A stretch of 64,000 bases of DNA, taken from an uncultured Anaerolineales bacterium (GTDB lineage Bacteria > Chloroflexota > Anaerolineae > B4-G1 > SLSP01). The stretch spans positions 5,502-69,501 of the forward strand of contig CAYTGR010000019.1 in NCBI GenBank assembly GCA_964437445.1. Reading direction: 5' to 3'. Position 1 is the stretch's first letter. The number at the start of each line of letters is the position of its first letter. Below, piece by piece: positions 3,955-60,157 of the stretch. A program made the translations under genes and the position numbers. A model generated the notes under the pieces. That model searched no databases. It was not told the DNA's origin and saw nothing but the letters and a program-made list of their open reading frames with translations.

Positions 3955-6900
3955 ATGGAAGATGCACGGCAGGTCAAACTCCAAGTCCTGGTTGTGGAAG
4001 ATTCTGAGGATGATGCCTGGTTGCTGATCCACGAGCTGCGGCGCGGCGGTTACCAGGTCACGTATGAGCGTGTGGAGACGGCCGCGGCGATGGTCGCCGC
4101 ACTGGACCGGCAACCGTGGGACCTCATCGTCTCGGATTATTACATGCCGCACTTCAGCGGGATGGCGGCGTTGCAGATCTATCAGGAACATGGTCTGGAT
4201 ATCCCATTTATTATCGTTTCGGGCGCGATTGGTGAGGATATTGCTGTAGCGATGATGAAGGCCGGCGCCAGCGACTATCTTCTGAAAGGCAACCTGGCGC
4301 GGTTGGTGCCGGCTGTGGAACGCGAGTTACGGGAGACCGAGGTGCGGCGCCAGCGCCAGCGGGTGCAGGCGGCTTTGCAGGAGAGTGAGGCCCGGTACCG
4401 GCGCACGATTGATTCCCTGGGCGATGCACTCCACGTGGTAGATCGGGATCTGCGCATTGTGCTGTGCAATGAGACCTTCCGCCGCCTGTTGGTGCAATCC
4501 GGCATTGCCACTGATCCGCTGGGGAAAAACTTGCTGGAGTTGCTTCCTTCCCTTCCGCCTCAAGCGCAGGAGGAATACCAGCAGGTGTTGGAGAGTGGGG
4601 ATGTATTGTTGACCGAGGAGGTCATAACCATTGATGGGCAGCCGCTTTGGGCCGAGACACGCAGAATCCCCATTTTGGATGAGCGGGGGCGAGTTTATCA
4701 AATTGTCACGGTGGTGCGCGATATCACCGAGCGCAAGCGGATTGAGGAATCGCTCCGGCGGCACACGGCGCAATTGGAGGCGTTGCGGCAGGTAAGCCTG
4801 GAACTCACCGCTCAGACCGAGCTGGAAACGCTGTTACGCTCTATTGTGACGCAGGCGGTAGGGTTGTTGGCCGGTACTTCGGGGGCGCTGTTTCTCCACC
4901 GCCCGCCGGAGAATTGCCTGGAGTGCGTGGTTGCCATTGGCCTGGGGGTGAATTTTGTCGGGCTATGCCTGGCCCGGGGGGAGGGCGCTTCGGGTCGGGT
5001 GCTGGAAAGTGGTCAACCCCTGGTGATCAGCGATTACCGTACCTGGACAGGGCGTTCTGCCCAGATCCGGGGTGAAGACATTGTTTCCCTTTTAAGTGTG
5101 CCGATTTGCTGGGGAACGGAATTCCTGGGGGTGCTGGATGTTTTCAGCACTGAGCCGGATGTTTTCACCACCGACGATGCTGAATTGTTGATGCTTTTCA
5201 CTGCCCAGGCCGCCATTGCTTTGCGCAACGCTCAGACCCTGGCGGCGGAGGAGCAACAGCGGCTCCGCGCCGAGGCGTTGGTGCAGGCGACGGCTGCGCT
5301 GACCACGACGCTGGAACTGGAAGCGCTGTTGGAAAATTTGCTGAAGGCTGCGATGCAGGTGATTCCGGCGGCCGAGAAAGGCAGTGTGCTCTTGCCAATC
5401 GAGACGACCGGCGAGCTCTGCGTCCACGCTGCGGTGGGCTACCACGATCCCCGGGTCCACGGCTTCTGCCTGCCGCCTGGGGTGGGTTATGCCGGCCTGG
5501 CGTTTAGGGAGCAGCGTCCCTTGTTGGTGCCGGACGCGAGCGTTTTCCTGGAGCGTTATGACCCCGGGGTGGACGAGGTGGAGGCCATCCAAGCGGCGAT
5601 TGCGACCCCGCTCTCTTACCACGACCGGGTGATTGGGGTGATCTCGCTGGATAATGCCAGCCGCCGGGCGGCGTTCACGGAGGAAGATCTGGCGTTGTTG
5701 ATGGCTTTTGCCGATCAGGCCGCCGTGGCGGTGGAAAATGCGCGCTTATTTGAACAGGCCCGCGCCGAGCGTGACCGCCTCGCCAGCCTCTATGAGGCCA
5801 GCCGTTGGTTGGCCGGCGCTTACACGCTGGAGGGGGTCACCCAACAGCTGCCAAAGATCATCCCGTTAGTGAGGGCTGAATATTGTGACCTGATCCTTTT
5901 CCGGACCCATGAGCCGCCTTTTCTCTACTCCAGTACGCCGGAGCGTTCGTGCCTGGACCCGGAGCAAGTCGTTGCTTATGTGCGGCAGGTGACCACCGAA
6001 GGGCTACAATCGTGGGTTCTGGCCCAGCGGCGCTCGGCGCTGGTAGTGGATACCCGGGGCGATCCGCGCTGGGTGACTTTGCCCGGCCATGAGCAAGAAG
6101 ACCCGGTGCGTTCGGTCGTCTGTATCCCCCTCTTTGACCGGCCGGGTAATATTATGGGGACCTTGAGCTATGAGCATTCGCGCCCTGACGTCTTTAGTCC
6201 GGCTGATCTGCGGTTGGCTGAAGAGATCGGGGTGCGGGTCGCTGTAGCGTTAGAGAACGCCCGGCTGTTTGATGAGACACGCCGCCGGCTGGCCCGCGAG
6301 CAGCAGCTGAACGAACTGGCTCACGCGGTGGGCGGGGAAATGGAGCTGGCGCCCCTGTTGCGCCGGTTCCTCCCGGCGGCGGCTCGGTTGGCCGGGGCAG
6401 ATGCGGCTGCCGTCAATATCTTGCAGCCGGATGGGGAAACGTTGGTGGGCTTGTATAACTACGGGTTACCGGAGCATCTGTTAGGAGAACGCATGTCTAT
6501 CCACGAAGGGATTGCCGGGCTGACCTGCCAACAGCGGGGGCCAGTCTTGGTGCCTGACTACCGGGAATATGCGGAGGCCATTGACGACTGGGTGCAAGCC
6601 GGGTTGCGCTCGGTGCTCTCGGTGCCCTTGCTGGCCGGCGATGAAGTGCTCGGTGCTTTGGGGCTGTTTAGTTTAGGCGTGGTCCGTTCCTTTAGTGCGG
6701 AGGCCGTGGTGGCGGCCCAGGCCGCCGCTCGCCTGGCGGCTGTGGCTCTGCAACGGGCCCGCCTGTTTGAAGAAGAACGCCAGGAGCGCCAGCTCTCTGA
6801 GGCGCTGGCTGAGGCGGCCGCCGTCATCAGCCGCTCGTTGGACCCGGATCAAATCCTGGATCATATTTTGGAACAAGTGGCGCGCGTGGTCCCTGGCGAT

Positions 6901-44059: not shown

Positions 44060-44182
44060 AATTGACTCTGGTCATTGTACCACAACGGGGTTAAAAATCA
44101 ACTTCCTCAGGCGAGGAACGGTGCTGACCAACGACTCGCGCTTCAGCCGCAGCACGGAGTCCTGTCGGCTGGAAACGCTGGC

Positions 44183-44292
44183 TGGACATTTTTCTGTACT
44201 CTTTTACCTTTCACGGCCTACTGCTCTCTGCTCACTCCCTTACTGGTTTCTGTTCAAGGTTGGACATTTTTCTATACTCTTTTACCTTTCAC
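44183..44292. repeat. Two 32-bp direct repeats (TGGACATTTTTCTGTACTCTTTTACCTTTCAC and TGGACATTTTTCTATACTCTTTTACCTTTCAC) separated by a 46-bp spacer
   Basis: Read directly: 44183..44214 and 44261..44292, one mismatch. AT-rich, non-palindromic, between the TetR start and the CPBP gene end. Confidence 0.6.
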
Positions 44293-45073
44293 AGGGCGCC
44301 CTGCGAGGTAACAGCCAGTACACCAAAACCAGAGTAACCAGCAAAACAACGCCATAAATTGGCTCTCCTCCACGATCCGGTACATTCAATAAACCTTTGT
44401 CTTGCAGGAGATTCCATGCATAATGAAAACCTATCACACAACCTAAATTGCCTCGTTTGATGACCATCCCGCCCAAAACTATGCTAATCAGAAACGCATA
44501 GACAAAAGCGAACCAATAGTAGTCGGGGTTAATCAGGTGTATGGCCGTAAAGAGACTTGCAGATATTATTAACCCTACCCCTATACTCACACGGTGTCTG
44601 AGCACAGAGAGTATGTAGCCGCGAAAGAGCCCCTCTTCCGCTATGGCGACTATCAACCAAAAGAACAACAGCGCCCCCACATCAACACTTGTAGTGGCGT
44701 GCCCTATTTGATCGAGACTCATTTCTTTTGTAATGAATACCATGCCCCCTGCTACCAAACCAATGGACAAACTCCCCCATACTATCCCCAGTAACAAATC
44801 CATCCAAAACCCTTTATCCGGCCAACAGACGCCGATAAAACTTAACGGTTTGCGTTCCAGCCATAACTCCAACAGAAGGCTGATTATTATCGCCAGATGA
44901 AAAGCGTATTCCCCTATTGCTTCAACCTTAAGCAATGAAGCGAGTAGAGCAAACACTATCATCAGAATTATCACAAACACAAATACCCGCAGGATTTTCC
45001 AACCGGGACGCAATTCTTTGTTGCTGGAATAGAACAAGCTCATGGGTCTTATTTCCTCCAATTTCATGTACAT
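44282..45073 (-). CDS. CPBP-family intramembrane metalloprotease (CAAX protease / Abi family)
   Basis: EEGLFRGYIL, FTAIHL and HYAWN motifs in a polytopic membrane protein. Gene is AT-rich relative to the rest of the window. Confidence 0.75.
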   Translation of the reverse strand: MYMKLEEIRPMSLFYSSNKELRPGWKILRVFVFVIILMIVFALLASLLKVEAIGEYAFHLAIIISLLLELWLERKPLSFIGVCWPDKGFWMDLLLGIVWGSLSIGLVAGGMVFITKEMSLDQIGHATTSVDVGALLFFWLIVAIAEEGLFRGYILSVLRHRVSIGVGLIISASLFTAIHLINPDYYWFAFVYAFLISIVLGGMVIKRGNLGCVIGFHYAWNLLQDKGLLNVPDRGGEPIYGVVLLVTLVLVYWLLPRRAPCER

Positions 45074-45081
45074 AGTATAGC

Positions 45082-45216
45082 GCCCAACTGCTGGCGCTTC
45101 AGCTGCACCGCGCAGCGCAGCGGAGCGGCGTCAGGTGGAACTCCCCCTGGCTGGCTGCACCAGCCTCCCCCGGATGAACGGGCCGTTGGCCCGTTCTTAG
45201 CAAATGCTTGTTAGCC
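45082..45216. repeat. Copy A of a ~135-bp repeated structured intergenic element (copy B at 49083..49219), immediately 5' of a minus-strand start codon
   Basis: The two copies align at roughly 80% identity with an identical 48-bp core (GCGCAGCGCAGCGGAGCGGCGTCAGGTGGAACTCCCCCTGGC). Hairpins are preserved by compensatory differences. Confidence 0.6.
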
Positions 45217-45945
45217 CGCCTTTTTCAGCCAAGGAACTTGAGTGTTTGCAGCAGTATTGAACCTTTCAATGCCCCGTCTGTGTTTAATCCGAGCATAAAT
45301 GCAGTGGACTTGAAAGGAAATAACAAACATAACTATACCACCGACGATAAGATTGCTGTGAGGAACAGTATCTTGGGACAAAAATTGTACCGTAATGATC
45401 ATAAGGCCAGTAAGAGCAAATCCGTTTACTATGCCGATAAATAGTTGGTGGGTTCCAAGGGGATATATCCACCATAACCTTTTGTTGATTTTTTCAACCA
45501 AGTTTATTTTTCGTGGTGAAATTGGACTGACTTCAGCAAAAGAGTTGTCAATATAAAAAATGTATGGTTTTTCGGTCTCTCTACCCTGAAACAGACGGTA
45601 TTTCAACAAATTTAATCCAAGGGCGAAGTTGGAGAGGTCAATGTTTCTGTTAACAATAGAATCTTGAATAACAATTCCAACTAATATGGCGAATACAAGC
45701 AAGCCCGCAACGCTTGGATACGATAGCAGCAAATTGCCACTGTTCACTTGGAAAAGCACGATGATGGCCCCTGTCACCGCAGACAGTAAAGTGAGATAGA
45801 AATTGAAAATCCCATTGATCGCGTTTTCCGTATGAATATATAAGTTTGATAGAGACGCATACTCTGCCTTTAAAATATCAATCGTTTCTTCCCTCTGTCC
45901 TGATTGACTAATTGGTGAGATATTGCTCTTGGGCTTCTTGTCCAT
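45211..45945 (-). CDS. Hypothetical membrane protein (AT-rich, likely horizontally acquired)
   Basis: 244-aa ORF with four or five hydrophobic helices. Asn/Ile/Lys-rich composition, unlike the surrounding high-GC genes. Confidence 0.4.
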   Translation of the reverse strand: MDKKPKSNISPISQSGQREETIDILKAEYASLSNLYIHTENAINGIFNFYLTLLSAVTGAIIVLFQVNSGNLLLSYPSVAGLLVFAILVGIVIQDSIVNRNIDLSNFALGLNLLKYRLFQGRETEKPYIFYIDNSFAEVSPISPRKINLVEKINKRLWWIYPLGTHQLFIGIVNGFALTGLMIITVQFLSQDTVPHSNLIVGGIVMFVISFQVHCIYARIKHRRGIERFNTAANTQVPWLKKAG

Positions 45946-46028
45946 AGGTTGAGATCCTCTAAGGCAATTTAGTAAGGTGGGCTAACGGCTGGCGTCGGCT
46001 CAAGCCGTAAGTTGGGCGGCTCTTTGAG

Positions 46029-49000
46029 CTACGGCTGCCAGTTCCTGAGCACGAGGGGTATGTAGACATACCAGCGTGGTTTTTCGGATACTTTGATCAC
46101 AAACTCCTGCTCAGCGAATGTCCCCGTCCTATCTGTAGCGCGCAGCGTAACCGTACAAGTACCCGTATTGGCCGGTGTGCCGGCCAGCGTCGCCGTGCCG
46201 TTGCCGTGATCGGTCAGCGTCAGCCAGGCTGGGAGCGTGGAGGCGGTGATGGTCAGCGCGTCGCCGTGGATGAGGTCGGGGTCACCGGCGACGACAGCAT
46301 AGGCGTAGGGCGTGCCTTGCGTGGCGGTGAGCACCGGCGTGCTGGCAAAGTACGGCGCGTCGTTGACGTTGGCGACGGTGATGGTGAACGCCTGCGTGTC
46401 GGTCAGCCCGCCGCTGTCGGCCACCCGTAGCACCACCGGATGCTGGCCCACGTTGGCGTTGGAGGGCGTGCCGGAGAGGGTTGCCGTTCCGCCGCCGTGA
46501 GCGGTGAACGTGAGCCAGGCGGGCAATGTCGGTGCTGTGATGGTCAGAATATCGCCATAGATCAAGTCGGAGTCGGTGATGATGGCGGTATAAGTGTAGA
46601 TCATACCCTGCGTCGCAGTTGTGACCGGTGGGCTGGTGAAGCCCGGCGCATGGTTGGGACCCTTCTCATACGCCCCCATATCCACTATGGCGCTCCCGTT
46701 GCCGTCGCCATCCACAATGCGGGGGTTGCCGTCCAGGTCCGTGGTGACAGATACCGGCACGGCGCTGTTGATTCCGGCGTCAATCGCCGGGGAGGTCAGT
46801 TGCAGGCGCAGGTTGCCGCCGGCCGGGTTCACAAAACGCGGGTCGGCGTCAATGTTGCCGCCGCCATTGGTGCCGCAGGCAGAGTTCCAACTGCCCGAGC
46901 CGCCGCAGCCCTGGATGTCGCTGTAGGAGATGACCGGGATCCAGGTGTCGTCGTCATTGTAGATTTCGGACCCGCTGGAGGCCGAGTTGCCCCACAGAAT
47001 AACGTTCCTCAACTGCGGGACGCTGTAAGTATAGTTGGCTATCCCCCCGCCATTGTAGGTGGCCGTGTTGTCATTGAAAGTGACGTTTGACAGCGTCGGT
47101 CTGCTATTCGCCGCATTGCACATCCCACCGGCGATCAGGCCGGCTGCATTGCCCCTGAATATGACGTTTGACAACGTTGGGTTGCTGTAGAAACGGGTGT
47201 ACATCCCGCCCCCGCTCTGATAGGCCGTGTTACTGTCAAAGATGACGTTCGTAAGCGTTGGGTTGCATTCAACATTGTTGTACATTCCCCCGCCGGATTC
47301 AGCCTCGTTGCCGCTAAAGATAACGTTCCTCAGCGTGGGGCTGCTGCCCGACTGACCGAACATCCCGCCGCCATCGTAGGTGGCCGTGTTGCCATTGAAG
47401 GTCACGTCCGTCAGCGTGGGGCTGCTCGACTCGTTTTCCATTCCGCCACCCTTTAAGCCCGCCGTGTTGCCATTGAACCTCACGTCTGATAGCGTCGGGC
47501 TACTCACGTTGTTGCACATTCCACCGCCATCATAGTCGGCTCTGTTTCCATCAAAGGTGACATCCGTCAGCGACGGGCTGCTGGAGTTGTTATTGTACAT
47601 CCCACCGCCAGAACCTGCGGAGTTCTCGTTGAAGGTGACGGCTGTCAGTGTCGGACTGCTGGCAGTGTTGTATATCCCACCGCCATAGCTGGAGGCTATG
47701 TTGCCCTCAAAGGTGACGTCCGTCAGCGTCGGATTACTGGAATCATTGCACACCCCGCCACCCCCCTTGTGAGAACCAGTCGCCGAGTTGCCAGAGAAGG
47801 TGACATGGATCAGCGTCGGGTTGCTCTCATAGTTGGACATTCCACCGCCGTTGCTGTAATTACCATCGCCGGTAGCCGAGTTGTCCGAGAAGGTGACGTT
47901 CGTTAGTGTCGGGTTGCTGGCATAGTTGAACATTCCGCCACCGTAGAATGCCGTGTTGTCACTGAAAGTGACCTCCGTCAGTGTTGAACTGCTGTCAAAC
48001 CCGTTGTACATCCCGCCGCCGGTGTTGCCTGCTGTATTGCCGCTGAAGGTGATATTCATCAGCGGTGAGGCACTATGGTAATTGTACAACCCCCCGCCAT
48101 CGTTGGCAACGATATTCCCGTCAAAAGTGATGTCCGTCAGCGAGGGGCTGCTCTCATAATTGTACATCCCGCCGCCATCGGCTGCCTGGTTATAGCTGAA
48201 GATGACACTCGTCAGTGTCGGGCCGCTGCTGTTGTTGAACGCCCCGCCGCCAGAATTGCTGGCAGAGTTCCCGCTAAAGGTGACGTTTGCCAGCATTGGG
48301 CTGCTCTCATAGTTGTATACCCCGCCGCCGCGGGTAAAGGCCACGTTGCCCTCGAAGGTGACATCCGTCAGCGTGGGGCTGCTCCACTGATTGAGCATCC
48401 CGCCGCCGTACGCAGCCGCGTTGCCACTGAAGATGAGCGCCGTCAGCGTCGGGCTGCTCTCGTCGTTGAACATCCCGCCGCCGAGGTAATGTGGCCAGTT
48501 CTCCTCGGCCTCGACAGCATCGGCCAGCCCGGCGGTGATGAAAAAGCCATCCAGCACGGCGGTCTCGGTTACACCGTTGCTCATGACAACATGGTAGGCG
48601 TTCGTGCCGGTGATGTTGGCTGTGGTGGTCACCACGCCATGGGGATCGGTAGAGTCATTGCCGTCAATGTCACCGCTGAGGACCGTGGGGTGGGCCCGCC
48701 AGTCCCGCTGGGTGCGCAATGTCTCGGTGGCGACAAAGCCGCCATAGATGGCGACGCCGTTCCTCAGCGTAAAGGTGGCCTCCCGGTCGTTCGGATCGGT
48801 GGTGGGTTTGTGTACTCCCGCCTGGACCCAAATCTCGTCGCCGCTTTGGGCATTGTGCAGCGCAGTTTGCAGCGTACATGCGGTAGACCAGGAATCCCCG
48901 CAGGGCCACGCTGTGCTGCCATTCGGCCTGGCGCGAATCACGCTGGAGGTGGCGCGAGCAATGTCAGGGCCTGTGAACGTTGTGACCAGTAATGATACCC

Positions 49001-49046
49001 CCAGCAGAAGGGCTACTACTGTAAAGAAATGCATTATCTTTGCCAT
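46029..49046 (-). CDS. Large secreted right-handed parallel beta-helix repeat protein with two C-terminal Ig/cadherin-like repeats
   Basis: Signal peptide MAKIMHFFTVVALLLGVSLLV with AAGGAGG 5 nt upstream of the ATG at 49046. More than 20 tandem ~23-aa repeats of the form SSPTLT(D/N)VTF.GN.A..GGGMYN. Two ~95-aa repeats follow (TITAPTLPAWLTFTAHGGGTATLSGTP / TITASTLPAWLTLTDHGNGTATLAGTP). Confidence 0.7.
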   Translation of the reverse strand: MAKIMHFFTVVALLLGVSLLVTTFTGPDIARATSSVIRARPNGSTAWPCGDSWSTACTLQTALHNAQSGDEIWVQAGVHKPTTDPNDREATFTLRNGVAIYGGFVATETLRTQRDWRAHPTVLSGDIDGNDSTDPHGVVTTTANITGTNAYHVVMSNGVTETAVLDGFFITAGLADAVEAEENWPHYLGGGMFNDESSPTLTALIFSGNAAAYGGGMLNQWSSPTLTDVTFEGNVAFTRGGGVYNYESSPMLANVTFSGNSASNSGGGAFNNSSGPTLTSVIFSYNQAADGGGMYNYESSPSLTDITFDGNIVANDGGGLYNYHSASPLMNITFSGNTAGNTGGGMYNGFDSSSTLTEVTFSDNTAFYGGGMFNYASNPTLTNVTFSDNSATGDGNYSNGGGMSNYESNPTLIHVTFSGNSATGSHKGGGGVCNDSSNPTLTDVTFEGNIASSYGGGIYNTASSPTLTAVTFNENSAGSGGGMYNNNSSSPSLTDVTFDGNRADYDGGGMCNNVSSPTLSDVRFNGNTAGLKGGGMENESSSPTLTDVTFNGNTATYDGGGMFGQSGSSPTLRNVIFSGNEAESGGGMYNNVECNPTLTNVIFDSNTAYQSGGGMYTRFYSNPTLSNVIFRGNAAGLIAGGMCNAANSRPTLSNVTFNDNTATYNGGGIANYTYSVPQLRNVILWGNSASSGSEIYNDDDTWIPVISYSDIQGCGGSGSWNSACGTNGGGNIDADPRFVNPAGGNLRLQLTSPAIDAGINSAVPVSVTTDLDGNPRIVDGDGNGSAIVDMGAYEKGPNHAPGFTSPPVTTATQGMIYTYTAIITDSDLIYGDILTITAPTLPAWLTFTAHGGGTATLSGTPSNANVGQHPVVLRVADSGGLTDTQAFTITVANVNDAPYFASTPVLTATQGTPYAYAVVAGDPDLIHGDALTITASTLPAWLTLTDHGNGTATLAGTPANTGTCTVTLRATDRTGTFAEQEFVIKVSEKPRWYVYIPLVLRNWQP

Positions 49047-49082
49047 TTTACCCTCCTTGTGGATAAGACGATAGAGCCAGCT

Positions 49083-49219
49083 GCCCAACGGCCTGTGCTT
49101 CACCTGCGCCGCGCAGCGCAGCGGAGCGGCGTCAGGTGGAACTCCCCCTGGCCGGCGAGGCCAGCCTTCCAACCGGAGGAACGTGCAGGGCTACGTTCTT
49201 AGCGAACGCTTGTTATCTG
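49083..49219. repeat. Copy B of the ~135-bp repeated structured element (see 45082..45216); overlaps the last 6 codons of the res-like gene and ends 33 bp upstream of the beta-helix gene start
   Basis: Direct alignment with copy A. Confidence 0.6.
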
Positions 49220-52200
49220 CCCGAACAGGATCCTCATGGAATCGTAATCCGCCCCACGTTCAAGGAAAAGAATGTGTTTTTCCGCAAACCTGACGCGATC
49301 CCACGTTCCATCATCATAGCGCTGATAGAGGTCATCATATGGTGTCGCGGAGATAATAAAGGCGTCCAGAAAAACATTGGTCCTTTCGCTTCGTTTTCCG
49401 ATTTCTCTTGCCAGTTCCGGTAGCCGCTCGTGCAGACGCGCTTTCTCATCATGGATGTAGGCTTTGGCGTGTATCATTCCATGGGGCTCAATGAACACAA
49501 TGCGCTGAGCGCCGCTATTCTGGTCAACGACCCATAGGATGAAGTCGGGATAGAAGCCGCGCTCCTCGAAGAAGCCTATTCCATAGCCGCGGCTTAAGTT
49601 ACGCAGCAGGAATACTTCCTTGCCCGCCAGCGACTTGTCTTTCTCGGCATTCCAATACTCGCGCAGGTCGCGCACGAAGCGCGCCTCGCTCTCCTTTAGC
49701 CCCGGCGGGACGATTTGCGCTTTTTCCGGCATGTCCACCAGGAGCGGCTGGTAGAGGTGGCGGTCGAAATGAATGCGCGGCAGACCGGCGTTCTCTTGTT
49801 CACAAAGGCGCTGTTGCTCCTTGAGCAAGGCTTGTACGGCCTCCACCAAATGCTCTTCTGAACGCGGGACTCGGACTACGTAGCCTGCTTTTTCTTCGCT
49901 CACCCCCTGCGGCCTGAAGTCCAGGTTGGGATCGCTGGCATCCAGCGGCCGATAGACCATGGTTTGCTCATCCCATTGTTCGCGGCGCGTCTGATAGAAG
50001 CGGTCCAGATACCGGCAAAGGAGTTGCGTCACCGCCTGCTGGAGCAGGACGCGGTCGGCAAAGGATTGCGGCGCGAACACACGCTCATCGGCGATCAGTG
50101 TGCAGAGGGGAATATCCCTGTCATTTTTCAGGCCGATGATCTGGCGCGGTGTTTCCGGTTGAATGACCAGGTTGGTCAGCCCTTTGTGCGTCTTATACGC
50201 CAGCAAGTCGAGATAGGCCTGCTGCCAATCCACCCAGGCCAGGCTTTCGGGGGGCAGAGGGCGCGCCCGGCCGCTGCGCACCTCGACGGCGTGCAGGCCC
50301 AGCCTGGTGCTTTCCATGGCCTGCACCCTGACCGAGAGATCCACCTGCACGGAGATGGAAGCGTCCGGTTCGAGGAGCAGGCTGGCCTCGCGGGCGAAAT
50401 CGCGGCCCTCCGGCGGGCGCGGCACGACCAGCCCGCGTTGGAGAAATTGCTCGTTGGCCCAGACGAACAGCGGCAGTTCGATGGCCGGTTCGACCTCCAC
50501 GCCTTCGCGTTCCAGGTAGTCGCGGAATTGCGCCATGTAGTTGGCGCGCACGGCGAAAATGTTGAGCGTCTCCAGCAGACGGATGTGTTTGGGATGCGTC
50601 CCATCCAGCGCCGCACTGCGTTTGAGGCTCATCCCCTTGCCCTTGAGGCGCACGCCGCGCCCGAGAAGTTGGATGATCTGCGAGCCTTCCTGCCGCCCGA
50701 TGTTCAAGAGGCCCATGCTGGCCACGCGCCAGGAGTTCCAGCCTTCCATGAATTTCTTGGCGCCGATGAGCACATGGATTCCGGAGTCGGGGCGGTTGAT
50801 GCGCTCGAAGAGCGAAGCGGCAATGGCGTCGTCCTCCAGGGTGATGCCGCCGGCATCCTCCTCCACCAGTTTCTTGAAGGCGGAGGTGTCGCCGATGAAA
50901 ATCAGGCCAAAATAGTCCTCGGCGCCCGCCGCCTTGAGGCCCAGTTCGCCGGGACTGCTCTTGATGTCGGCGAGATGCAGACCGCCGCCCGCCGGAGCGT
51001 GGAAGAGGCGCGCCAGGATGGCGGCATAGAGCTGCGCCGGAGTGAGATTCTCTTCTTTCAAGAAGGGGAAACGTCCGGCGAAAATATCCGCGCCGTCGGC
51101 GGAGACCAGCCCGGTTTTCCCGTCCAGGATGGCCTTGAGCGTTTTGACTGCCCAGGCGCGGTCGCTCAGCACGCGGTGCAGGAAGCGCGCCACGGTCAGC
51201 ACGTCGCTGCGCGGCTTTTTGTTCTCGGTGTAAACGGCATTGACCGTGCTGCCGACGAACACCCAGAGCGGCTTCTCCAGGTTGTAGGGACGCAGGGCGT
51301 CATCCTGTTCTTCATAGAGCCGGATTTGCTCGTAAAACGAAAGCAGGTTGCCCAGGAGCAGGGTCTCCCCCTCACCCCAGCCCTCTCCCCTCTGGGGAGA
51401 GGGGGGCGCGTCGCGCAGGTTCAGGATGCGGAAGTCCTTGCCGAAGCCGTCGCCGTAGAAGTAGCGGTAGGAATAGTCGAAGACGATGGCCTTGCCGTAT
51501 TCGGCTGTCAGCGGGTCGTTGCGCGCCGCCGAAAGCGCCTGCCCGAAGGTGGCGCTGTACTCGAAGGTGAAGCCGGTCGCGCCCAGGGCGTCGCGGTAGC
51601 CGCGCCAGGCCTCGCCGCCGGAGCCTTTGTGACCTTCGTCCACGAAGATGAGATTGCGCCCTTCGAAGGTATCCACCGGCACGCTCATGCCGCCGCCGCG
51701 CTTTTCTTCCACCAGTTTGGTGATTTCGATGACCTGCACGGCGTCCCGCCCGCCCGTCCACAGGCCGCTCGTGTTCAGGTCGAAGCGCCGCGCCGGAATG
51801 CCCGAGGCGGCGAGTTCCTCAAGGTGCTGCTCGCTCAGGCCCTCGTTGGGCGTGATGAGCAGGATGTTGTCCAGCGGGGGACGAGTCGCCGAATCGCCCG
51901 TACCGTAGTGCAGAAACTGGTAGTAGTTCAGGTGCAGGAGCAGGGTCTTGCCGCTGCCGGTGGCCATCCAGAAGGCCAGTTTGGTCAAATCGCCCTCGGT
52001 GAAGGGTTCGTCCTGCGGTTCGCCGGGCAGACGACGGGCGTTGCGCCCGGCGACAAAGGCATTCAGGTCGGCTAACAGTTGCGCTTTGGCGTTGAACAGG
52101 CAGTCGAGGACGATTTCGGTGTAGAGCGCCGCCAGGTACTGGAAGTAGCGCAGGGTGATTTTTTCCGTGCGCCCGCGGTTGATTTGCTCCAGGTGCCGGC

Positions 52201-52453
52201 GGATGTTCTGGTCGTAGCGTTCCAGGTCGGCGGCGGGAATCTTGACCTGACTGCCGCGGGCAATGAGATGGTGGTAGAGAAAACTATGCCCGTCCGCGCC
52301 AAAGCCTTCGGCCACGCTCTTGCAGTCTTCCAGGAGGGCGCGGTTGCTCGCATAGCCCAGGAGATGGTTGAGCCAGGCCAGCAGGACAAGGCGGTTTTCG
52401 AGTGTGACGTATTGCTGGAGGCCGTTCGGCATATCACGCCTCCACCCCGGCAA
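49199..52453 (-). CDS. Type III restriction enzyme Res-like subunit: SF2 helicase/ATPase plus C-terminal nuclease-like domain, with ~185-aa N-terminal extension
   Basis: Helicase motif I FWMATGSGKT, motif II FVDEGHKG, motif III SATFG, motif VI QLLGRGVRLKG. C-terminal region carries YPDFILWVVD...IVFIEPHGMIHAK (possible degenerate PD-(D/E)xK). Overlaps the mod stop by 20 bp. Confidence 0.7.
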   Translation of the reverse strand: MPGWRRDMPNGLQQYVTLENRLVLLAWLNHLLGYASNRALLEDCKSVAEGFGADGHSFLYHHLIARGSQVKIPAADLERYDQNIRRHLEQINRGRTEKITLRYFQYLAALYTEIVLDCLFNAKAQLLADLNAFVAGRNARRLPGEPQDEPFTEGDLTKLAFWMATGSGKTLLLHLNYYQFLHYGTGDSATRPPLDNILLITPNEGLSEQHLEELAASGIPARRFDLNTSGLWTGGRDAVQVIEITKLVEEKRGGGMSVPVDTFEGRNLIFVDEGHKGSGGEAWRGYRDALGATGFTFEYSATFGQALSAARNDPLTAEYGKAIVFDYSYRYFYGDGFGKDFRILNLRDAPPSPQRGEGWGEGETLLLGNLLSFYEQIRLYEEQDDALRPYNLEKPLWVFVGSTVNAVYTENKKPRSDVLTVARFLHRVLSDRAWAVKTLKAILDGKTGLVSADGADIFAGRFPFLKEENLTPAQLYAAILARLFHAPAGGGLHLADIKSSPGELGLKAAGAEDYFGLIFIGDTSAFKKLVEEDAGGITLEDDAIAASLFERINRPDSGIHVLIGAKKFMEGWNSWRVASMGLLNIGRQEGSQIIQLLGRGVRLKGKGMSLKRSAALDGTHPKHIRLLETLNIFAVRANYMAQFRDYLEREGVEVEPAIELPLFVWANEQFLQRGLVVPRPPEGRDFAREASLLLEPDASISVQVDLSVRVQAMESTRLGLHAVEVRSGRARPLPPESLAWVDWQQAYLDLLAYKTHKGLTNLVIQPETPRQIIGLKNDRDIPLCTLIADERVFAPQSFADRVLLQQAVTQLLCRYLDRFYQTRREQWDEQTMVYRPLDASDPNLDFRPQGVSEEKAGYVVRVPRSEEHLVEAVQALLKEQQRLCEQENAGLPRIHFDRHLYQPLLVDMPEKAQIVPPGLKESEARFVRDLREYWNAEKDKSLAGKEVFLLRNLSRGYGIGFFEERGFYPDFILWVVDQNSGAQRIVFIEPHGMIHAKAYIHDEKARLHERLPELAREIGKRSERTNVFLDAFIISATPYDDLYQRYDDGTWDRVRFAEKHILFLERGADYDSMRILFGQITSVR
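51366..51407. repeat. GC-rich palindromic ~39-bp element inserted in-frame within res (CCCTCTCCCC-TCT-GGGGAGAGGG core); encodes PSPQRGEGWGEGE
   Basis: Read directly. Related copies at 52669..52707 and 54707..54747 inside mod. Confidence 0.6.
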
Positions 52454-55400
52454 ACATGCGTTCCTTGAAAAGCGGATCCAGCGACTGCGCGCCGGGGATG
52501 AGCGAATCGCCGTTCACAAAGACCTCATCCGCGCCATCGGTCAGTTTCTGTTTGGCAACAAAGTCGCGGTCGCGCTCGTAGTCTTCTTTCGTCCAGCCCT
52601 GCGTCTCGCGCCAGATAACGGCCACGGCGCGCCCGTTTCGCAGAAGGCCGCGATAGACCAGGTAGCGGCCCTCACCCCCGGCCCCTCTCCCAGCGGGAGA
52701 GGGGAGGACGCGGCGCGTCTGCACGTCCAGCCCCAGCAGGTAGTTGAAGGTTTCGGGCAAATCCACCAGGCGCTCGCGGGTTTCGCCGTCGCGGTGGAAG
52801 CGCAGTTTGTAGGCGAAGGGCGTCTGGAGTTTCTCCACGTCCAGCAGGGTTGCGCTGTGGCGGGTCTCCCACTTGAGCATGTAGTGGAGCAGGTAGTCGT
52901 CTCGGAAGAGTTCCAGCACCTTCTGGCCGCCTGCGTCATCAAAGGTCAGGTTGTTGAGCGCGTCCTCGAAGGATTCCAGGCGGATGATTTTGACAATACG
53001 CGGGCTTCGTTCGGCTTCTTCGGCTGTCGCCATGCGCTTGGGCTTGCCGTCCTTCCACTCCGGCGTGAAGGTGACTTTTTTGATGCGCGGCAGGAGTACG
53101 GTGTCGAAGTAGTGCGCCATTTCAACAAGGATGAACTTGCGCCGCCCGCCATCTTCGCGGTTGAGGTTGATGACCGCGTGGCCGGTGGTGCCGGAGCCGG
53201 CGAAGAAGTCGAGAACTTGCTCTTCACTATTGAGATTGCACACCCGAAGACAGTCGTTGACTGTGTAAATTGATTTTGGAAAGGAGAACAAGGTTGTACT
53301 TCCTAAAATATGTCCAAGCAGGTTAGTACCATAATCGGTTGCTGAATACTTGCTGTCAAGCCAAAGTGTTGGCGGCAAGGTTCCATGTCGCATGCGAGAT
53401 TTCATGTAGACTCCCAGCCTGCCAGTTCTGTCTGGCTTTGCAACCAGCTCTGATAAATTTTTCATTGCTGTTTCATGTCCCCACTTCCATGTCTTCTCAT
53501 CTCCTTTTTCATCCACCGGCCAGACAACCGTTTCTTCTGCTGATGGCTCTTGAAGAATAGTCCAGCTACGTCTTGACTCATCCCATTCTATCTGTGGAAT
53601 ACGGAGGGAACCATCTGTGCGCGCATATATCGGATAGAAAAGCTTCGGTCGTGCGAATCTATTTGCGTTGAACCCCCCGTGTTTGCGAAAATTTACCCAT
53701 TCAAATCGTCCTTTTGCATCAGATTCGTTATATCTCGCGATTTGACGCTCGGTTTTCGCAAGTTCGCCAATTGTGACTTCCTTGGAATAACCGACAAAGA
53801 GTGCATAGTCGTGAGAGACTGAGAGCCCCGTTATGGCAGACCTGCCTGCAGGGTTACTGCGAACTACTACTGTACCCAGAATTGACTCGGTGCCAAAAAG
53901 TGTCTGTAGGGCCATGTGTAGCCGACTATACTCAGAATCGTCAATGGCAATGCACCATTGTCCGTAAGCTTCCAGAACAAATGTCGAGAGAAATATACGG
54001 TCTATAAGCAAGGTAAGCCAAGAAGAATGCTTGTAATCGTTTTTGTACAAGATTTCTGATGCAGCCGTGTTATACGGCGGGTCAATGTAAATGCACTTCA
54101 CCCGCTGGCGGTACTTTTCCTGCAACAGGTTGAGCGCCTGCCAGTTTTCGGAGTGCACCAAGAGACCGTCGGTGAGTTCGTCAAGATTGTCAAACGAAGC
54201 CAGCAGGCGGTCGGTGAAGTCTTGGGGGAAATGGCGCGTGTCGAGCGGCAGGGTGGGATGGGCCTGGAGAAAATCCACGCGCTGCTGCGCGCCTTTCGGC
54301 GACTCAACGGCCAGGAGCGCCCGCCACTCCTCCCACTGCGCCTCACAGGCGGCGATCTCCGGGTAGAACGCTTCGGGGATGTTGCCGACGGTGATGACGT
54401 AGAAGGTCTCGGTAACAAACTTCTTCTTCTCCCAGAGCATCTTCTGGAAGTCTTCGATTTGCGCCAGAAAGTCAATGATAACGCTGCCAATGCGCTTGAC
54501 CAGGCGCATGAGCTGGAACCAACCCTCGGCTAATTGCTCGCCGGCGGCTTCCATCTCTTCAAGGTTGAGCGCTTCGTTCTTCAGGTAAAAGTCGAGTTCG
54601 CGGGCAAGAAAGCCGCGCAGGTCCTTGTGGATGAAAAAGTCGCTGGTGTTGCGGCGGGTGTACTGGCGCAGGTGGTATTCCAGCAGGGAAACCGCCGCGC
54701 CATTTTCTTCCCCTCTCCCTTTGGGGGAGGGGGCAGGGGTGGGGGTGCGCCGTTCGGCGGTCAGCGCGGCTATGGCTTCGGGGGCTTTGATGCGCTTGGG
54801 AATGTCGGCGACAGCTTTGGCAAGGATGGCTTCCTGCTGGTTCTTTTGACCGTAGGCGATGGTCTCCTGCGCGGTCAGCGGGCGGAACTGGAAGGGGATG
54901 GTCAATGTGCGCGACGCTTCATCCCAGGCGAGGCCGTCCAGCACGGGCAGGAAGAAGCGCTTCTCGCCCTTGATATTGCCCTGCTCCACGTCGGCCTGCC
55001 GGAGTTCGAAGCGCACGGTCACGCCGTTGGGGGCTTTGTAGGTGTAGTCGGTGAAATACTCGCCGGTCTTGACGTAGTACTGGTCGTGGTTGGCCCAGTA
55101 GAGCGTCACCTCCTCGCCGTTGTAGGGGATGGCGTAGCGTTCCTTCTTCGAGTAGCGGCGCCTGGAGATAAAGTCGCCATCCTGCCAGTAGCGGGAGAAG
55201 AAGGCGTAGAGGTGGTTGTAGATGGCGGCTTCCAGGGTCTCAGTAGAACGAGCGCCCCGGGCTTTGGCCTGCGCTTCCAGGTATTCCTTTCCCGCTCTGG
55301 TAGCGCGGTAGGTTTCGGCCAGGTTGCCGTCGGCGTCTAAGGCGTCTTCGCCCAGCGCGTCCAACACCTTCTGGCGGGCGGCCTGCAGGGCTTCCTGCGC

Positions 55401-55595
55401 CTGTCCCTGCTCGGCCAGCGCGCCGCGCCGCAATTCCTCGGAGATGGCGCGGGGCAGGTCTTCGGTAATCCACTTCTCGATCGCCTGCCGCTTGTAATTC
55501 ATGATGCGGTAGATGCCGAAGTCCAGGTCGGCGCAATCAAATTGGAAAAGGTCGCGCAAGAGGGATTGGAATTGTTCAAGAGGTCTTGTCGTCAT
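52434..55595 (-). CDS. Type III-like DNA N6-adenine (or N4-cytosine) methyltransferase Mod, beta-class (motif IV before motif I), with ~500-aa N-terminal extension of unknown function
   Basis: Motif IV IYIDPPYNT at ~residue 520 and motif I DFFAGSGTTGHAV at ~residue 790, with an AT-rich TRD between them. N-terminal 1-500 has no recognised domain (starts MTTRPLEQFQSLLRDLFQFDCADLDFGIYRIMNYKRQ). 1053 aa. Confidence 0.8.
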   Translation of the reverse strand: MTTRPLEQFQSLLRDLFQFDCADLDFGIYRIMNYKRQAIEKWITEDLPRAISEELRRGALAEQGQAQEALQAARQKVLDALGEDALDADGNLAETYRATRAGKEYLEAQAKARGARSTETLEAAIYNHLYAFFSRYWQDGDFISRRRYSKKERYAIPYNGEEVTLYWANHDQYYVKTGEYFTDYTYKAPNGVTVRFELRQADVEQGNIKGEKRFFLPVLDGLAWDEASRTLTIPFQFRPLTAQETIAYGQKNQQEAILAKAVADIPKRIKAPEAIAALTAERRTPTPAPSPKGRGEENGAAVSLLEYHLRQYTRRNTSDFFIHKDLRGFLARELDFYLKNEALNLEEMEAAGEQLAEGWFQLMRLVKRIGSVIIDFLAQIEDFQKMLWEKKKFVTETFYVITVGNIPEAFYPEIAACEAQWEEWRALLAVESPKGAQQRVDFLQAHPTLPLDTRHFPQDFTDRLLASFDNLDELTDGLLVHSENWQALNLLQEKYRQRVKCIYIDPPYNTAASEILYKNDYKHSSWLTLLIDRIFLSTFVLEAYGQWCIAIDDSEYSRLHMALQTLFGTESILGTVVVRSNPAGRSAITGLSVSHDYALFVGYSKEVTIGELAKTERQIARYNESDAKGRFEWVNFRKHGGFNANRFARPKLFYPIYARTDGSLRIPQIEWDESRRSWTILQEPSAEETVVWPVDEKGDEKTWKWGHETAMKNLSELVAKPDRTGRLGVYMKSRMRHGTLPPTLWLDSKYSATDYGTNLLGHILGSTTLFSFPKSIYTVNDCLRVCNLNSEEQVLDFFAGSGTTGHAVINLNREDGGRRKFILVEMAHYFDTVLLPRIKKVTFTPEWKDGKPKRMATAEEAERSPRIVKIIRLESFEDALNNLTFDDAGGQKVLELFRDDYLLHYMLKWETRHSATLLDVEKLQTPFAYKLRFHRDGETRERLVDLPETFNYLLGLDVQTRRVLPSPAGRGAGGEGRYLVYRGLLRNGRAVAVIWRETQGWTKEDYERDRDFVAKQKLTDGADEVFVNGDSLIPGAQSLDPLFKERMFAGVEA
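52669..52707. repeat. GC-rich palindromic element copy 2 (CCCCTCTCCC-AGC-GGGAGAGGGG) in-frame within mod; encodes PSPAGRGAGGEGR
   Basis: Read directly; same orientation and flanks (CCCTCACCCC) as the copy in res. Confidence 0.6.
54707..54747. repeat. GC-rich palindromic element copy 3 (inverted orientation) in-frame within mod; encodes PSPKGRGEENG
   Basis: CCCCTCTCCC-TTTG-GGGGAGGGGGCAGGGGTGGGGG aligns with the reverse complement of copy 1. Confidence 0.55.
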
Positions 55596-57196: not shown

Positions 57197-59089
57197 TTAT
57201 TCTCCTTCGATGAAATTCCAAAGTGCCGGCTCTTCTTGACGAGAGTCTTGCGCGATGATCCAGATTTGTCCTGCGGAGTCCGCAGTTGCGGCCTCTATGT
57301 CCATATCCGTAACGGAAAGCAATTCGTTGCCTTCCAGACGGTAGACCGAACCGCTTTGGAAGAGCCACAGCCTGCCTGCGCCATCGAATACAAGGTTTGG
57401 AGAGGCGTCTGTAAACGCAAGCGTTTGTTCAGTGCCAAGAATTTCCTGCCAGGCGCCATCTTGCAAATGATAAAGGCCGCGCGCCGCGTCGCAACTGGCG
57501 CCGCCGCATAGGGCGGAAAGCGCCCACAGGTCTCCGTCAGGGCCGGGCAGCATAGCCAGCGGGTAACCCTGGCGATATTCTCCCGAATTGGGAATCACAA
57601 AATCGTTGAATTGCCGGGTTCCCTGGTCGAATTGCCGCACGAGGCCGTTCGCCATGCCGAGCCACACGTTCCCATTCTGGTCGGATGTAATTGCAGTGAC
57701 GCAGCCCGTGCTTGTCATCCCGCCGCGCCAGTGGCCCTGCCCGGCGGCAAAATCGGACGTATCCAGCCAACGCGCCCCGCCCCCGCCCATTGGCCCTTCC
57801 GCCCAGTCGCATTCGCCCACCCAGATTTGCTGGCGCTCTTCGACAAAATGAATGTGGAGTTCCATCAGCAAGTCGTTGGTCAAGGCAGGCGGCATGTCCA
57901 GGGTATCGCGCGTAAAAATCGTCCAGCGTCCATCGGCGTAGACGCGGATATCCTGCCCGGTAGCCAGCCACACCTGGCCGTGCGCCTCGCTGAGAACGCC
58001 GCGGCCTTCCAGCGAAGCCGGGTTGGAGGGCGGCAGCCAGCCTGCATCGGCATGAACAAAGGCAGAGCCGCCATAATCGGCCAGGGCGCTGTCCCAATAG
58101 AAAATTGTAGTGGGCACTTCTTCCGGGTAGAACCACGACCTGCCGGCATCGTCCACCCCGATGAAGCGTTGGGACGGCGCCAGAAAGTATGATTGCCAGG
58201 CGCCCTCCTGGAAGACGGCGTAGCCATTGGTGGTCATCAGGCGCAGGGCGCCATTCGGTAGCGCCTCCAGGTGGGTGATTTCACCGCTCAAATCTGCGGG
58301 CAATGCGGCAACTTTGTGAAAGGCAACCGCTGCTTCGCTGCCAGACGCCAGCGGATAGACCAGTGTCCATTTTTCATAGTCCAATGGATTGCCTGCTGTT
58401 TGCTCGCAATCCCGGTAACGCGCCTCATCCAGCACAAAGCGTTCGCCTGCGAGATGGTATTTGTAGAACACGCCGCAATCTTTGAGACCGCGATAGGCGT
58501 TCAGGTTGGTCAATGTTTGCGTCTCAGGATGGTAAACAGGGAAGGCGCCGGTGAGCGTATCCACTTCTTGCAGGCCACGCGCCGGGTCATCCTCCTGAAG
58601 CAGCACCGGCACGTAGATGGGACGTGCAGACGGCGGCGTAGCGCGATAGTCCAGCCAGTAGAGGCGCTCTTCCACCCAGTAGGGGCCGAGGTTGCAGGTC
58701 ACGAAGGCCAGGTACTGCCCGTCGGCGGCCGGATAAAGTTCAATGCCGCCCGCCTCCCCAGGGTCCCGCTTGAACCGCCCGAATCCTTCTTCGCAGTCCT
58801 CGGGCCAGCCCAAAAACGCTTGCCAGGCGGGGCGTTCATCGTAGCGGATGAATTGCGTTTGTGGGTCAAGGGTCGCTGTAGCCGTCGGCGCGGCAGGGCT
58901 ATGCCTTGCAATGGCCGGGGTGGCCGTCGGCGCGGCAGGGCTATGCTTTGCAATGGCCGGGGTAACCGTCGCAATCGCTGACGTCCCAGAGGGCAAAGGG
59001 GTCGCCTGCGAGTTTGTGCAGGCTGCCGTCAGCAAAATTGCCAACAGCAGAACAATCCCACCCACCCAATGATTATTCCACTTGCTCAT
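57197..59089 (-). CDS. Lipoprotein with two-component-regulator-propeller-like beta-propeller repeats; N-terminal 14-aa tandem duplication
   Basis: Signal peptide and lipobox (VLLLAILLTAAC) with AGGAGG 6 nt upstream of the ATG at 59089. Repeats such as NGNVWLGMANGLV and DGDLWALS. A 42-bp tandem repeat at 58882..58965 encodes PAIAKHSPAAPTAT twice. Confidence 0.55.
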   Translation of the reverse strand: MSKWNNHWVGGIVLLLAILLTAACTNSQATPLPSGTSAIATVTPAIAKHSPAAPTATPAIARHSPAAPTATATLDPQTQFIRYDERPAWQAFLGWPEDCEEGFGRFKRDPGEAGGIELYPAADGQYLAFVTCNLGPYWVEERLYWLDYRATPPSARPIYVPVLLQEDDPARGLQEVDTLTGAFPVYHPETQTLTNLNAYRGLKDCGVFYKYHLAGERFVLDEARYRDCEQTAGNPLDYEKWTLVYPLASGSEAAVAFHKVAALPADLSGEITHLEALPNGALRLMTTNGYAVFQEGAWQSYFLAPSQRFIGVDDAGRSWFYPEEVPTTIFYWDSALADYGGSAFVHADAGWLPPSNPASLEGRGVLSEAHGQVWLATGQDIRVYADGRWTIFTRDTLDMPPALTNDLLMELHIHFVEERQQIWVGECDWAEGPMGGGGARWLDTSDFAAGQGHWRGGMTSTGCVTAITSDQNGNVWLGMANGLVRQFDQGTRQFNDFVIPNSGEYRQGYPLAMLPGPDGDLWALSALCGGASCDAARGLYHLQDGAWQEILGTEQTLAFTDASPNLVFDGAGRLWLFQSGSVYRLEGNELLSVTDMDIEAATADSAGQIWIIAQDSRQEEPALWNFIEGE

Positions 59090-59721: not shown

Positions 59722-59863
59722 GACTCAACTCCTTTGAATGGAAATCCTGCAAGAAATCAAGGTTCGACATACTTTCCAACCAACTCGGTGAGATCGTGCA
59801 GCGTCAAAATGAACTTCTCGTAATCCGGGACGACTGTCACGCGCCGTCCTAACGATCTGCTGC

Positions 59864-60157
59864 TCAGCCGCAGCCGCGAAGCGGCTGTCGGCTGCAGCGG
59901 CGGGTTAGGCGCAGGTTTATCCCACCAGATACACCGCCTACCCTGGTCTGCACTGCGATGCGCTGGCCGTTCAAACTGTAGTACGTCCTGTTGACTTGCT
60001 GTGTGTCGGCGATGAAGGTATCCACCGCGCCGCCGTACACCGTCCTCCCGCCGCCGGGCAGGAGTTGCAGCACGCGGTCTCCGTCGCTGTCATACCAGAA
60101 CCGCGTTACTGCTCTGGTCACAGTATCCGTCACCACGGCTGGCGGTTTTTGGCGCAA
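59864..60157 (-). pseudogene. Rhs/YD-repeat fragment (orphan remnant)
   Basis: RFWYDSDGDRV and TYYSLNGQRIAV are YD-repeat-like motifs. No N-terminal region and no RHS core end. Confidence 0.45.

Follow-up and report, generated by a model that had tools for sequence, protein, structure and literature searches.

Two repeated elements in an uncultured Anaerolineales contig are probably integron attC sites, each split by a remnant of an IS110-family insertion sequence

The attC sites of integrons carry on their bottom strand an R' box of the form 5'-RYYYAAC and an R'' box of the form GTTRRRY, with extrahelical bases near the L'' box (usually G16 and a T at about position 23), a central spacer that stays unpaired and a terminal structure that varies (PMC5027507). 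Under the rule applied by IntegronFinder, at least two attC sites on the same strand and less than 4 kb apart, without an intI gene nearby, form an attC cluster that has no integron integrase (CALIN; PMC4889954). Elements of the IS1111 family target one end of attC sites, and elements of the IS110 type have a non-coding region upstream of the transposase gene, tnp (PMC11187229). Both attC sites and the insertion sequences (IS) that target them are well described. Here we analyse 64,000 nt of DNA from an uncultured Anaerolineales bacterium (contig CAYTGR010000019.1, positions 5,502–69,501; hereafter the window), in which an element of about 135 bp occurs twice, at 45082–45216 (copy A, 135 nt) and at 49083–49218 (copy B, 136 nt). 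We think it likely that both copies are integron attC sites, and that in each the L'' arm has been interrupted by a 63–64-nt remnant or miniature derivative of an IS110-family element.

Copies A and B share about 82% mean column identity when 200-nt windows are aligned with MAFFT, and a repeat search recovered from them an ungapped 88-nt block at 86% identity. The longest perfect run shared by the two is 44 nt (CCGCGCAGCGCAGCGGAGCGGCGTCAGGTGGAACTCCCCCTGGC, at 45108–45151 and 49109–49152), not the 48-bp identical core given in the initial annotation of this DNA, and it has two matches in the window where 100 shuffles predict 0.00. The repeat itself, which that annotation had reported at these coordinates with roughly 80% identity, is thus real and not a product of chance. 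A profile of both copies (nhmmer) found no third full copy in the 64 kb and only a weak partial match at 44123–44184. The copies also lie, as had been stated, at the stop of one gene and just before the start of the next. Specifically, copy A covers the TAA stop (45211–45213) of a 244-aa open reading frame (ORF) and ends 8 nt (ATG at 45073) or 38 nt (ATG at 45043) from the start of a CPBP/Rce1-like ORF, and copy B takes in the final 6 codons of a type III restriction gene (res), with a beta-helix (PMP-repeat) gene starting at 49046, 36 nt past it. The suggestion that this is a structured element tied to gene boundaries is upheld by what follows.

On the plus strand each copy can be divided into three parts, the attC arms comprising its first 59 nt and its last 13 nt (related loci from other genomes are given L numbers):

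45082–45140, plus strand: copy A, 5' arm and apex of the proposed attC bottom strand, identified with an attC profile and a covariance model from other genomes
45141–45203, plus strand: copy A, 63-nt insert, a probable IS110-family remnant, missing from short attC relatives and homologous to IS ends (L003)
45204–45216, plus strand: copy A, rest of the 3' arm, with an eroded L'' (ATGC), spacer TT and R'' box GTTAGCC, recognised by removing the insert in silico
49083–49141, plus strand: copy B, 5' arm and apex, with R' box GCCCAAC (49083–49089), L' box GTGCTTC, stem 1, bulged T, bulged G and GAA
49142–49205, plus strand: copy B, 64-nt insert, a probable IS110-family remnant, with hairpin 2 at 49148–49164 and hairpin 3 at 49179–49198
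49206–49218, plus strand: copy B, rest of the 3' arm, with an eroded L'' (ACGC), spacer TT and R'' box GTTATCT, overlapping the last res codons

Copy A begins with the R' box GCCCAAC (45082–45088), followed by a spacer, the L' box GCGCTTC, stem 1, a bulged T, a bulged G and the GAA of L'', and this 5' arm aligns base for base with short attC sites at L057:1040–1112 and L113:5863–5934. The AAC and GTT triplets are kept in both copies, the distal bases of R'' deviating from RRRY, and the T and G bulges are likewise retained in both (GGCG-T-CAGGTG-G-AA). Read on the minus strand, the R'' box of copy A contains the stop codon of the 244-aa ORF; the site orthologous to copy B in strain L006 still reads AAGCGCGTGTTAGCT. 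The lengths of A and B fall inside the known attC range of about 57–141 nt, and their short relatives measure 62–76 nt. A cassette architecture, in which an ORF is followed by its attC site and then by the next ORF, explains why the copies sit at gene boundaries. The relevant structure is a single-stranded DNA hairpin of the plus strand, of which the first stem of the initial annotation is the normal attC stem, its second and third stem-loops belonging to the insert. We note separately that the 44-nt core straddles the junction between attC and insert (33 nt of the former, 11 nt of the latter) and that its flanks differ by 10–26%; its perfect identity could reflect gene conversion or selection on the segment.

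The extent of the insert is set by comparison with uninterrupted sites. In both window copies it splits L'' at a point 3 nt past the G bulge, directly behind the sequence GGAA. At the corresponding point the short relatives L057:1040–1112, L113:5863–5934 and L001:907–985 read ...CAGGTGGAA/GCGCGTGTTAGG with nothing in between: the L057 and L113 sites run colinear with both window copies as far as ...GCGGCGTCAGGTGGAA and then continue with GCGCGTGTTAGG, and the L001 site has the window element's first 59 nt in common with it and closes straight after them (...CAGGTAGAAGCGCCGGTTGGGC). Copies A and B, together with a further long copy at L001:4170–4309, carry 63–64 extra nt exactly at the GCGGCGTCAGGTGGAA/GCGCGTGTTAGG junction, spanning CTCCCCCTGGCYGGC...TTCTTAGCAA. 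In copy A these comprise a left-end part (CTCCCCC...), hairpin 2 (45149–45165), hairpin 3 (45176–45196) and a right-end part, TTCTTAGCAA. Removing the insert in silico raised the attC-profile score from 24.0 to 38.7 bits for copy A, from 23.2 to 35.4 bits for copy B and from 27.5 to 43.2 bits for L001:4170–4309, and the spliced copies align end to end with the profile.

An origin for the insert is suggested by a full-length IS110-family element of 1688 nt that occupies the same L'' position in the same attC subtype at L003:1553–3240, and is found also at L004:1927–3612. The L003 element encodes a 471-aa RNA-guided transposase of the IS110 family, which matches NF033542 at 228.6 bits (cutoff 140) as well as PF01548 and PF02371. 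The element has AA at both junctions and the tnp stop codon 3 nt from its right end, and tnp is preceded upstream by about 265 nt of non-coding DNA, an arrangement of the IS110 type. The start of the element (CTCCCCCTGGCTGGCGGGGCCGGCCTTCCTACCGGATGAAACAG) is the homologue of the first ~47–48 nt of the insert, hairpin 2 included, and its end (...CTGTTTCTTAGCAA) that of the last ~19 nt. A copy of the same IS truncated after 135 nt is present in L005/L002. In L031, an Anaerolineae metagenome-assembled genome (MAG), a homologous IS left end that is about 30% diverged, and that includes a hairpin-2-like segment and GAAACAG, follows an attC site of another subtype at the equivalent point (directly after ...CGGCTG-C-AA). 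That the left end is found on a different attC subtype indicates that the segment travels with the IS and not with attC. A search of the non-coding region of the IS against Rfam, at E values up to 1, gave chance matches only.

In the window insert, some 47 nt correspond to the left end and some 17–22 nt to the right end, and there is neither a transposase nor a guide-RNA gene; it is therefore a remnant or a non-autonomous derivative rather than an IS. Judged from these alignments, its most economical reading would be a left end fused to a right end. Hairpin 3 would then represent the left and right subterminal inverted repeats paired with each other, which accounts for a stem that differs yet stays complementary among copies (GAACGGGCC/GGCCCGTTC in A, GAACGT/ACGTTC in B and GAAACAG/CTGTTTC in L003). 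Two candidate IS targets can be written down, one in hairpin 3 (GATGAAACAG/CTGTTTC) and one in the attC L'' arm (CAGGTGGAA/GCGCG). Further copies of the 63–64-nt module were absent from a scan of viral contigs, and among 114 loci they were found only in L001–L007.

The assignment of the arms to attC draws on a family of related sites in other genomes. A 22-mer from the core and junction matched seven metagenome loci and had no match in the GTDB species genomes, so the long type occurs in no species representative. A motif from the short sites (TCAGCCGCAGC, a gap of 4–12 nt, CTGTCGGCTG), scanned against the GTDB genomes, identified 105 loci, mostly in MAGs of Anaerolineae/Chloroflexota and Desulfobacterota. 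The 48 distinct full-length sites have one architecture: YYYAAC and then G, a short unpaired spacer, an 18-bp stem, a 2–3-nt spacer and GTTRRRY. Where the fold of a short site closes the hairpin, it nearly always has two single-nt bulges, confined to the 3' arm. In an alignment of 34 sites, standard pairs fill 93.4% of cells as compared with 82.0% in shuffles, and both sides change in 15 of 25 pairs as compared with a shuffle mean of 9.3, values that none of 500 shuffles reached; when the 3' partners were slid by 1–3 columns as a control, 29–45% of cells were paired. AAC and GTT are invariant, or nearly so, across the 34 members.

Real covariation is visible only across these approximately 34 family members, and not between A and B. 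The initial annotation had described three stem-loops preserved by compensatory changes between the two copies. Stem-loop 3 does contain one truly compensated pair (G-C to U-A), and stem-loop 2 is kept in both copies, though by a register shift and without column-wise covariation, whereas stem 1 has two uncompensated mismatches in copy A. RNAalifold, which had been proposed as a check and was applied to the four long copies, returned another set of local hairpins with almost no covariation. Because those copies amount to two or three independent sequences, which are too few, the argument from structure rests on the 34-member alignment.

The family adjoins integron integrase genes in three genomes. 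Family attC sites lie beside intI in L026, a Desulfobacteraceae MAG (TIGR02249, 305 bits against a cutoff of 265, with an N-terminal piece in the adjacent frame), in L114, a Chloroflexota MAG (170 bits, truncated), and in L076, a MAG labelled Heimdallarchaeota (124 bits, a fragment at the end of the locus). In all three the integrase is encoded on the strand that carries the attC bottom strand, divergent from the cassette ORFs, as in the canonical intI-attI-cassette layout. This orientation indicates that the plus strand of the window is the bottom strand, that the minus-strand cassette genes are normally oriented, and that an intI gene would be expected beyond 59.9 kb on the plus strand. The intI genes at L026:1610–2764 and L114:1984–2936 are split across reading frames, and are either pseudogenes or the product of assembly errors. 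L001 has eight co-oriented sites in a stretch of 8.2 kb, every one of them a short distance downstream from a small minus-strand ORF; one is the long-type copy (4170–4309) and the rest measure 62–130 nt. In the minimum-energy fold of the L001:4172–4308 bottom strand, both the R and the L boxes close, and they enclose a junction of stem 1 with hairpins 2 and 3.

The window was also searched with a covariance model (R1) built from 34 sites of other genomes, from which window, L006 and L008 sequence was excluded, and run with filters off. In addition to A and B, three sites were found:

44126–44187, plus strand: terminal short attC (GACCAAC...GCTGGAC), the GTT of its R'' box mutated to GCT; R1 match 44122–44190
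45980–46017, plus strand: internally deleted attC remnant (GGCTAAC...GTTGGGC) in the gap between the beta-helix and 244-aa genes; R1 match 45976–46020
59847–59910, plus strand: intact short attC (TCCTAAC...GTTAGGC) between two small minus-strand ORFs; R1 match 59843–59913

All five sites are on the plus strand, between 44.1 and 59.9 kb, and each follows a minus-strand ORF. The intact site scored 72.3 bits (E = 9e-19; 26 bits on the opposite strand), and its DNA fold (59847–59910) has two 3'-arm bulges. The terminal site scored 56.9 bits (E = 3e-14; 17 bits on the opposite strand) and was also recovered by nhmmer with the attC profile at E = 1e-14. Copy B (49079–49156) scored 35.2 bits (E = 8e-8), and for the three sites at or above 35 bits the reverse strand scored much lower. 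The deleted remnant, in which 37 model positions are replaced by 11 nt, scored 17.0 bits (E = 0.019); its presence suggests that the beta-helix and 244-aa genes were once separate cassettes. In the core-gene part of the window (0–44 kb) R1 had no match at E < 0.01 and two marginal matches at E near 0.02–0.09.

Neighbours among the sites beginning at 44126, 45082, 45980 and 49083 are separated by less than 4 kb and share a strand, and searches of the window found no intI gene nearby, so that these four (44.1–49.2 kb) constitute a CALIN under the IntegronFinder rule. Four of the five sites are damaged, two by the IS remnant, one by the internal deletion and one by the change of GTT to GCT. We regard the locus as most likely a fossil array of the CALIN type, whose cassettes are now fixed. 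Beside the terminal site we also noticed a 35-nt direct repeat (44180–44214 and 44258–44292, 94% identical, 78 nt apart), which is present in L006 too. Here the 3' end of the CPBP gene has been duplicated in tandem, and with it the terminal attC's R'' box as read on the top strand (GTCCAAC in one unit and GTCCAGC in the second).

Several results count against the interpretation of A and B as interrupted attC sites. Copy A (45078–45159) scored only 16.6 bits with R1 before splicing (E = 0.026), with an equal score on the reverse strand. The R boxes pair at 5 of 7 positions in A and 3 of 7 in B, the L boxes form four Watson-Crick pairs and one G-T pair in A and three and two in B, and the minimum-energy folds of both copies leave the hairpin open, with weak fold z-scores. 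Some sites are 3.9 kb and 10.6 kb apart, which is long for cassettes, and Pfam searches of 20 ORFs, a six-frame motif search and tblastn with IntI revealed neither an intI gene nor a fragment of one in the window or in L001–L009. The boundary of the IS is drawn from two independent IS contexts (L003/L005 and L031), and a k-mer search for guide RNA gave a 7-nt match, CGGCTGC, to the L031 target with no equivalent in L003. As regards sequence beyond the window, exact look-ups of three window proteins gave no record for two of them and led with the third to L008 and L009; past the window both reach Rhs-type genes only, L008 running ~2 kb beyond its end. L115, the long contig closest to a cassette protein from the 41.7-kb contig of L001 (there being no exact match), has neither an integrase nor an attC site of the family.

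The strongest competing account accepts the attC sites but regards the 64-nt module either as a small element in its own right or as a branch intrinsic to this attC subtype, the loop of hairpin 3 being a secondary target of the IS110 element. In L003 the interior of the IS does lie exactly between the halves of a perfect stem (GAAACAG...CTGTTTC), attC sites with branched termini occur in the same arrays (L001:1416–1546 and L004:5340–5500), and the near-equal length (63–64 nt) and shared layout of the module in A, B and L001:4170 would be easier to obtain from one stable element than from repeated deletions. An independent module, however, demands four events rather than two, since it must arrive at the same position in two attC subtypes and then receive an IS in hairpin 3 twice. 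It would also oblige the transposase ORF to read about 10 nt outside the IS to reach its stop in TTCTTAG. The larger unit has AA on either side of it, as an IS110-type core should, and between L003 and L031 the module has diverged about as much as the adjacent non-coding region. On balance we consider this account improbable. Division of the long element into two tandem short attC sites, with GTTGGAA halfway along copy B as an R' box, was also considered and was rejected, because the GTT is not conserved in A, L002 or L003.

Two readings dispense with integrons altogether. The initial annotation had named among its options a structured RNA or regulatory cassette (a cis-regulatory leader or a terminator-promoter unit), which would suit an intergenic, hairpin-bearing element just before start codons. 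We found no support for it: a scan of the whole window against Rfam at the gathering score, which had been suggested as a check, gave zero matches; RNA folds of the gene strand were no better than shuffles (z = -0.82 for A and -0.58 for B); neither a sigma-70-like promoter nor a hairpin with a T-run terminator was found on the minus strand inside either copy; and the downstream genes are unrelated to each other. The strand asymmetry of the family, moreover, is that of attC DNA hairpins, and elsewhere the family adjoins integron integrases. An RNA function or a terminator-promoter role for the element is, in our estimation, extremely unlikely. Scarcely better placed, and very unlikely in its turn, is a generic genome-wide palindromic repeat without any connection to integrons, similar to repetitive extragenic palindromes and bacterial interspersed mosaic elements (REP/BIME) or to miniature inverted-repeat transposable elements (MITEs). 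The copies are GC-rich, palindromic and intergenic, and two full copies in 64 kb would be compatible with a genome-wide distribution if the window alone is considered. Yet all related sites that we found form co-oriented arrays with one site per ORF, they have AAC/GTT core triplets, bulges on the 3' arm only and an adjacent intI in three genomes, and 0–44 kb of the window lacks sites at the E < 0.01 threshold. The MITE-like option of the initial annotation was nevertheless half right, in that the middle 63–64 nt appear to be derived from an insertion sequence.

If A and B are interrupted attC sites, as we favour, an integron integrase in the host would be predicted to bind the folded bottom strand of such a site and to cleave it between the A and the C of the R' 5'-AAC-3', at which point cassettes would be excised or inserted. 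An IS110-type element would target the L'' arm of the attC site 3 nt past the G bulge, and what is now present in A and B would be its left end fused to its right end. The IS insertion probably reduced or abolished recombination at both sites.

It is also conceivable, although we consider it rather doubtful, that the 63–64-nt module is a non-autonomous miniature IS110-family element, moved in trans into attC L'' arms by the transposase and guide RNA of a full-length relative. The insert of copy B is identical to that of L001:4170–4309 at 61 of 64 positions, while their 5' attC arms agree at only 48 of 58; between A and B the insert agrees at 48 of 65 positions and the 5' arm at 52 of 58. This discordance, in which the counts are small, hints at independent insertion or gene conversion, and together with the near-identical length and layout of the three copies it is a hint of a mobile miniature element. 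A mobile remnant would be an example of a miniature element under the guidance of a bridge or seek RNA, and would represent a route by which integron cassettes become fixed; a lineage of RNA-guided recombinases would then parasitise integron sites in genomes of the Chloroflexota type, and could switch off or freeze cassettes. If it is not mobile, it is an ordinary fossil.

The genes that the proposed sites separate, all on the minus strand, are as follows:

44282–45073, minus strand: cassette ORF for a CPBP/Rce1-like membrane protease (Pfam PF02517)
45211–45945, minus strand: cassette ORF for a 244-aa membrane protein of low GC content, without a family match in a Pfam search
46029–49046, minus strand: cassette ORF for a secreted beta-helix protein (PMP-repeat / He_PIG; Pfam)
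49199–55595, minus strand: type III restriction-modification pair, mod at 52434–55595 and res at 49199–52453 (PF01555, PF04851)

The type III pair lies immediately upstream of copy B on the gene strand. Genes at 44–46 kb have a GC content of 44–47%, as compared with about 62% elsewhere, and interpretation of 44–60 kb as a cassette array or genomic island would account for genes of low GC content, for their closely spaced boundaries and for the repeat. In L006, a sister strain that is 98.5% identical, a deletion has removed the greater part of the beta-helix gene as well as two thirds of copy B (L006:5093–5129 corresponds to window 46137–49184, with 36 unrelated nt at the junction). We considered whether this difference represents excision of a cassette and rejected that possibility, as its end-points lie inside the gene and inside the insert, away from the AAC/GTT crossover; the loss is an ordinary deletion.

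Other features of the window were noted as well. The beta-helix gene contains approximately 19 tandem units of 75–93 nt (46980–48490), which are repeats of the Chlamydia-PMP type and thus ordinary coding sequence of a repeat protein. A GC-rich palindromic element of about 35–40 nt, CCCTCACCCC..CCCTCTCCC....GGGAGAGGGG, is inserted in frame three times, once in res (51380–51404) and twice in mod (52682–52705 and 54709–54732), and each insertion can be read on either strand as 'SPxGRG/GEG' peptides; the element resembles a small palindromic repeat able to sit within coding sequence. A 42-nt tandem duplication (58867–58950, 86% identical) in the N-terminal region of a DUF1176 protein gives a repeated ATPAIA(K/R)HSPAAPT peptide. 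At the upstream end of the island (60–64 kb and L008:1–4483), an Rhs/YD-repeat toxin gene (TEN_YD-shell) is followed by small ORFs, including one for DUF4259, and this part looks like a toxin-immunity region rather than a set of cassettes.

Among described systems, the closest to the array are the attC sites of sedentary chromosomal integrons and CALINs (PMC4889954, PMC5027507), with which the window sites share the RYYYAAC/GTTRRRY boxes, the unpaired spacer and the two extrahelical bases on the L'' side, and their wider family also the R/L pairing. The sites are placed in the same way, at the 3' ends of ORFs that are co-oriented and for the most part promoterless, and within an array they likewise resemble one another. 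Copies A and B differ from such sites in the 63–64-nt insertion in L'' and in their eroded closing pairs; several of the 'cassettes' here are large (3.9 kb, with the type III restriction-modification pair within the 10.6-kb interval), and the host, to judge from the taxa in which the family occurs, is probably a GC-rich, Chloroflexota-like bacterium and not a proteobacterium. The length of A and B is also that of the Vibrio cholerae repeats (VCRs) and other long attC sites (~120–140 nt), which likewise are similar within a lineage and have hairpins beyond the R/L stem. In sites of the VCR type, however, the extra structure is at the apex, whereas here it branches off sideways and breaks up L'' on a single arm, and there are short homologues that lack the interruption.

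For the insert, the nearest counterpart is the IS1111-attC group (ISPa21, ISKpn4, ISPst6), whose members have the same DEDD RNA-guided transposase of the IS110/IS1111 superfamily and insert site-specifically, in one orientation, into one attC arm, and which leave similar non-autonomous remnants in arrays that are losing function. Degenerate footprints of IS1111-attC elements were reportedly found in Pseudomonas cassette arrays by Tetu and Holmes in 2008; the remnant described here differs from these in being a compact 63–64-nt fusion of ends with two hairpins, and its hosts are not Pseudomonas. In the IS1111 type the non-coding region lies downstream of tnp, whereas the element here is of the IS110 type, with about 265 nt upstream of tnp. 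What this locus appears to add is the use of the attC L'' arm by an element of the IS110 rather than the IS1111 type, its occurrence in uncultured Chloroflexota-like lineages, and the compact two-hairpin form of the remnant.

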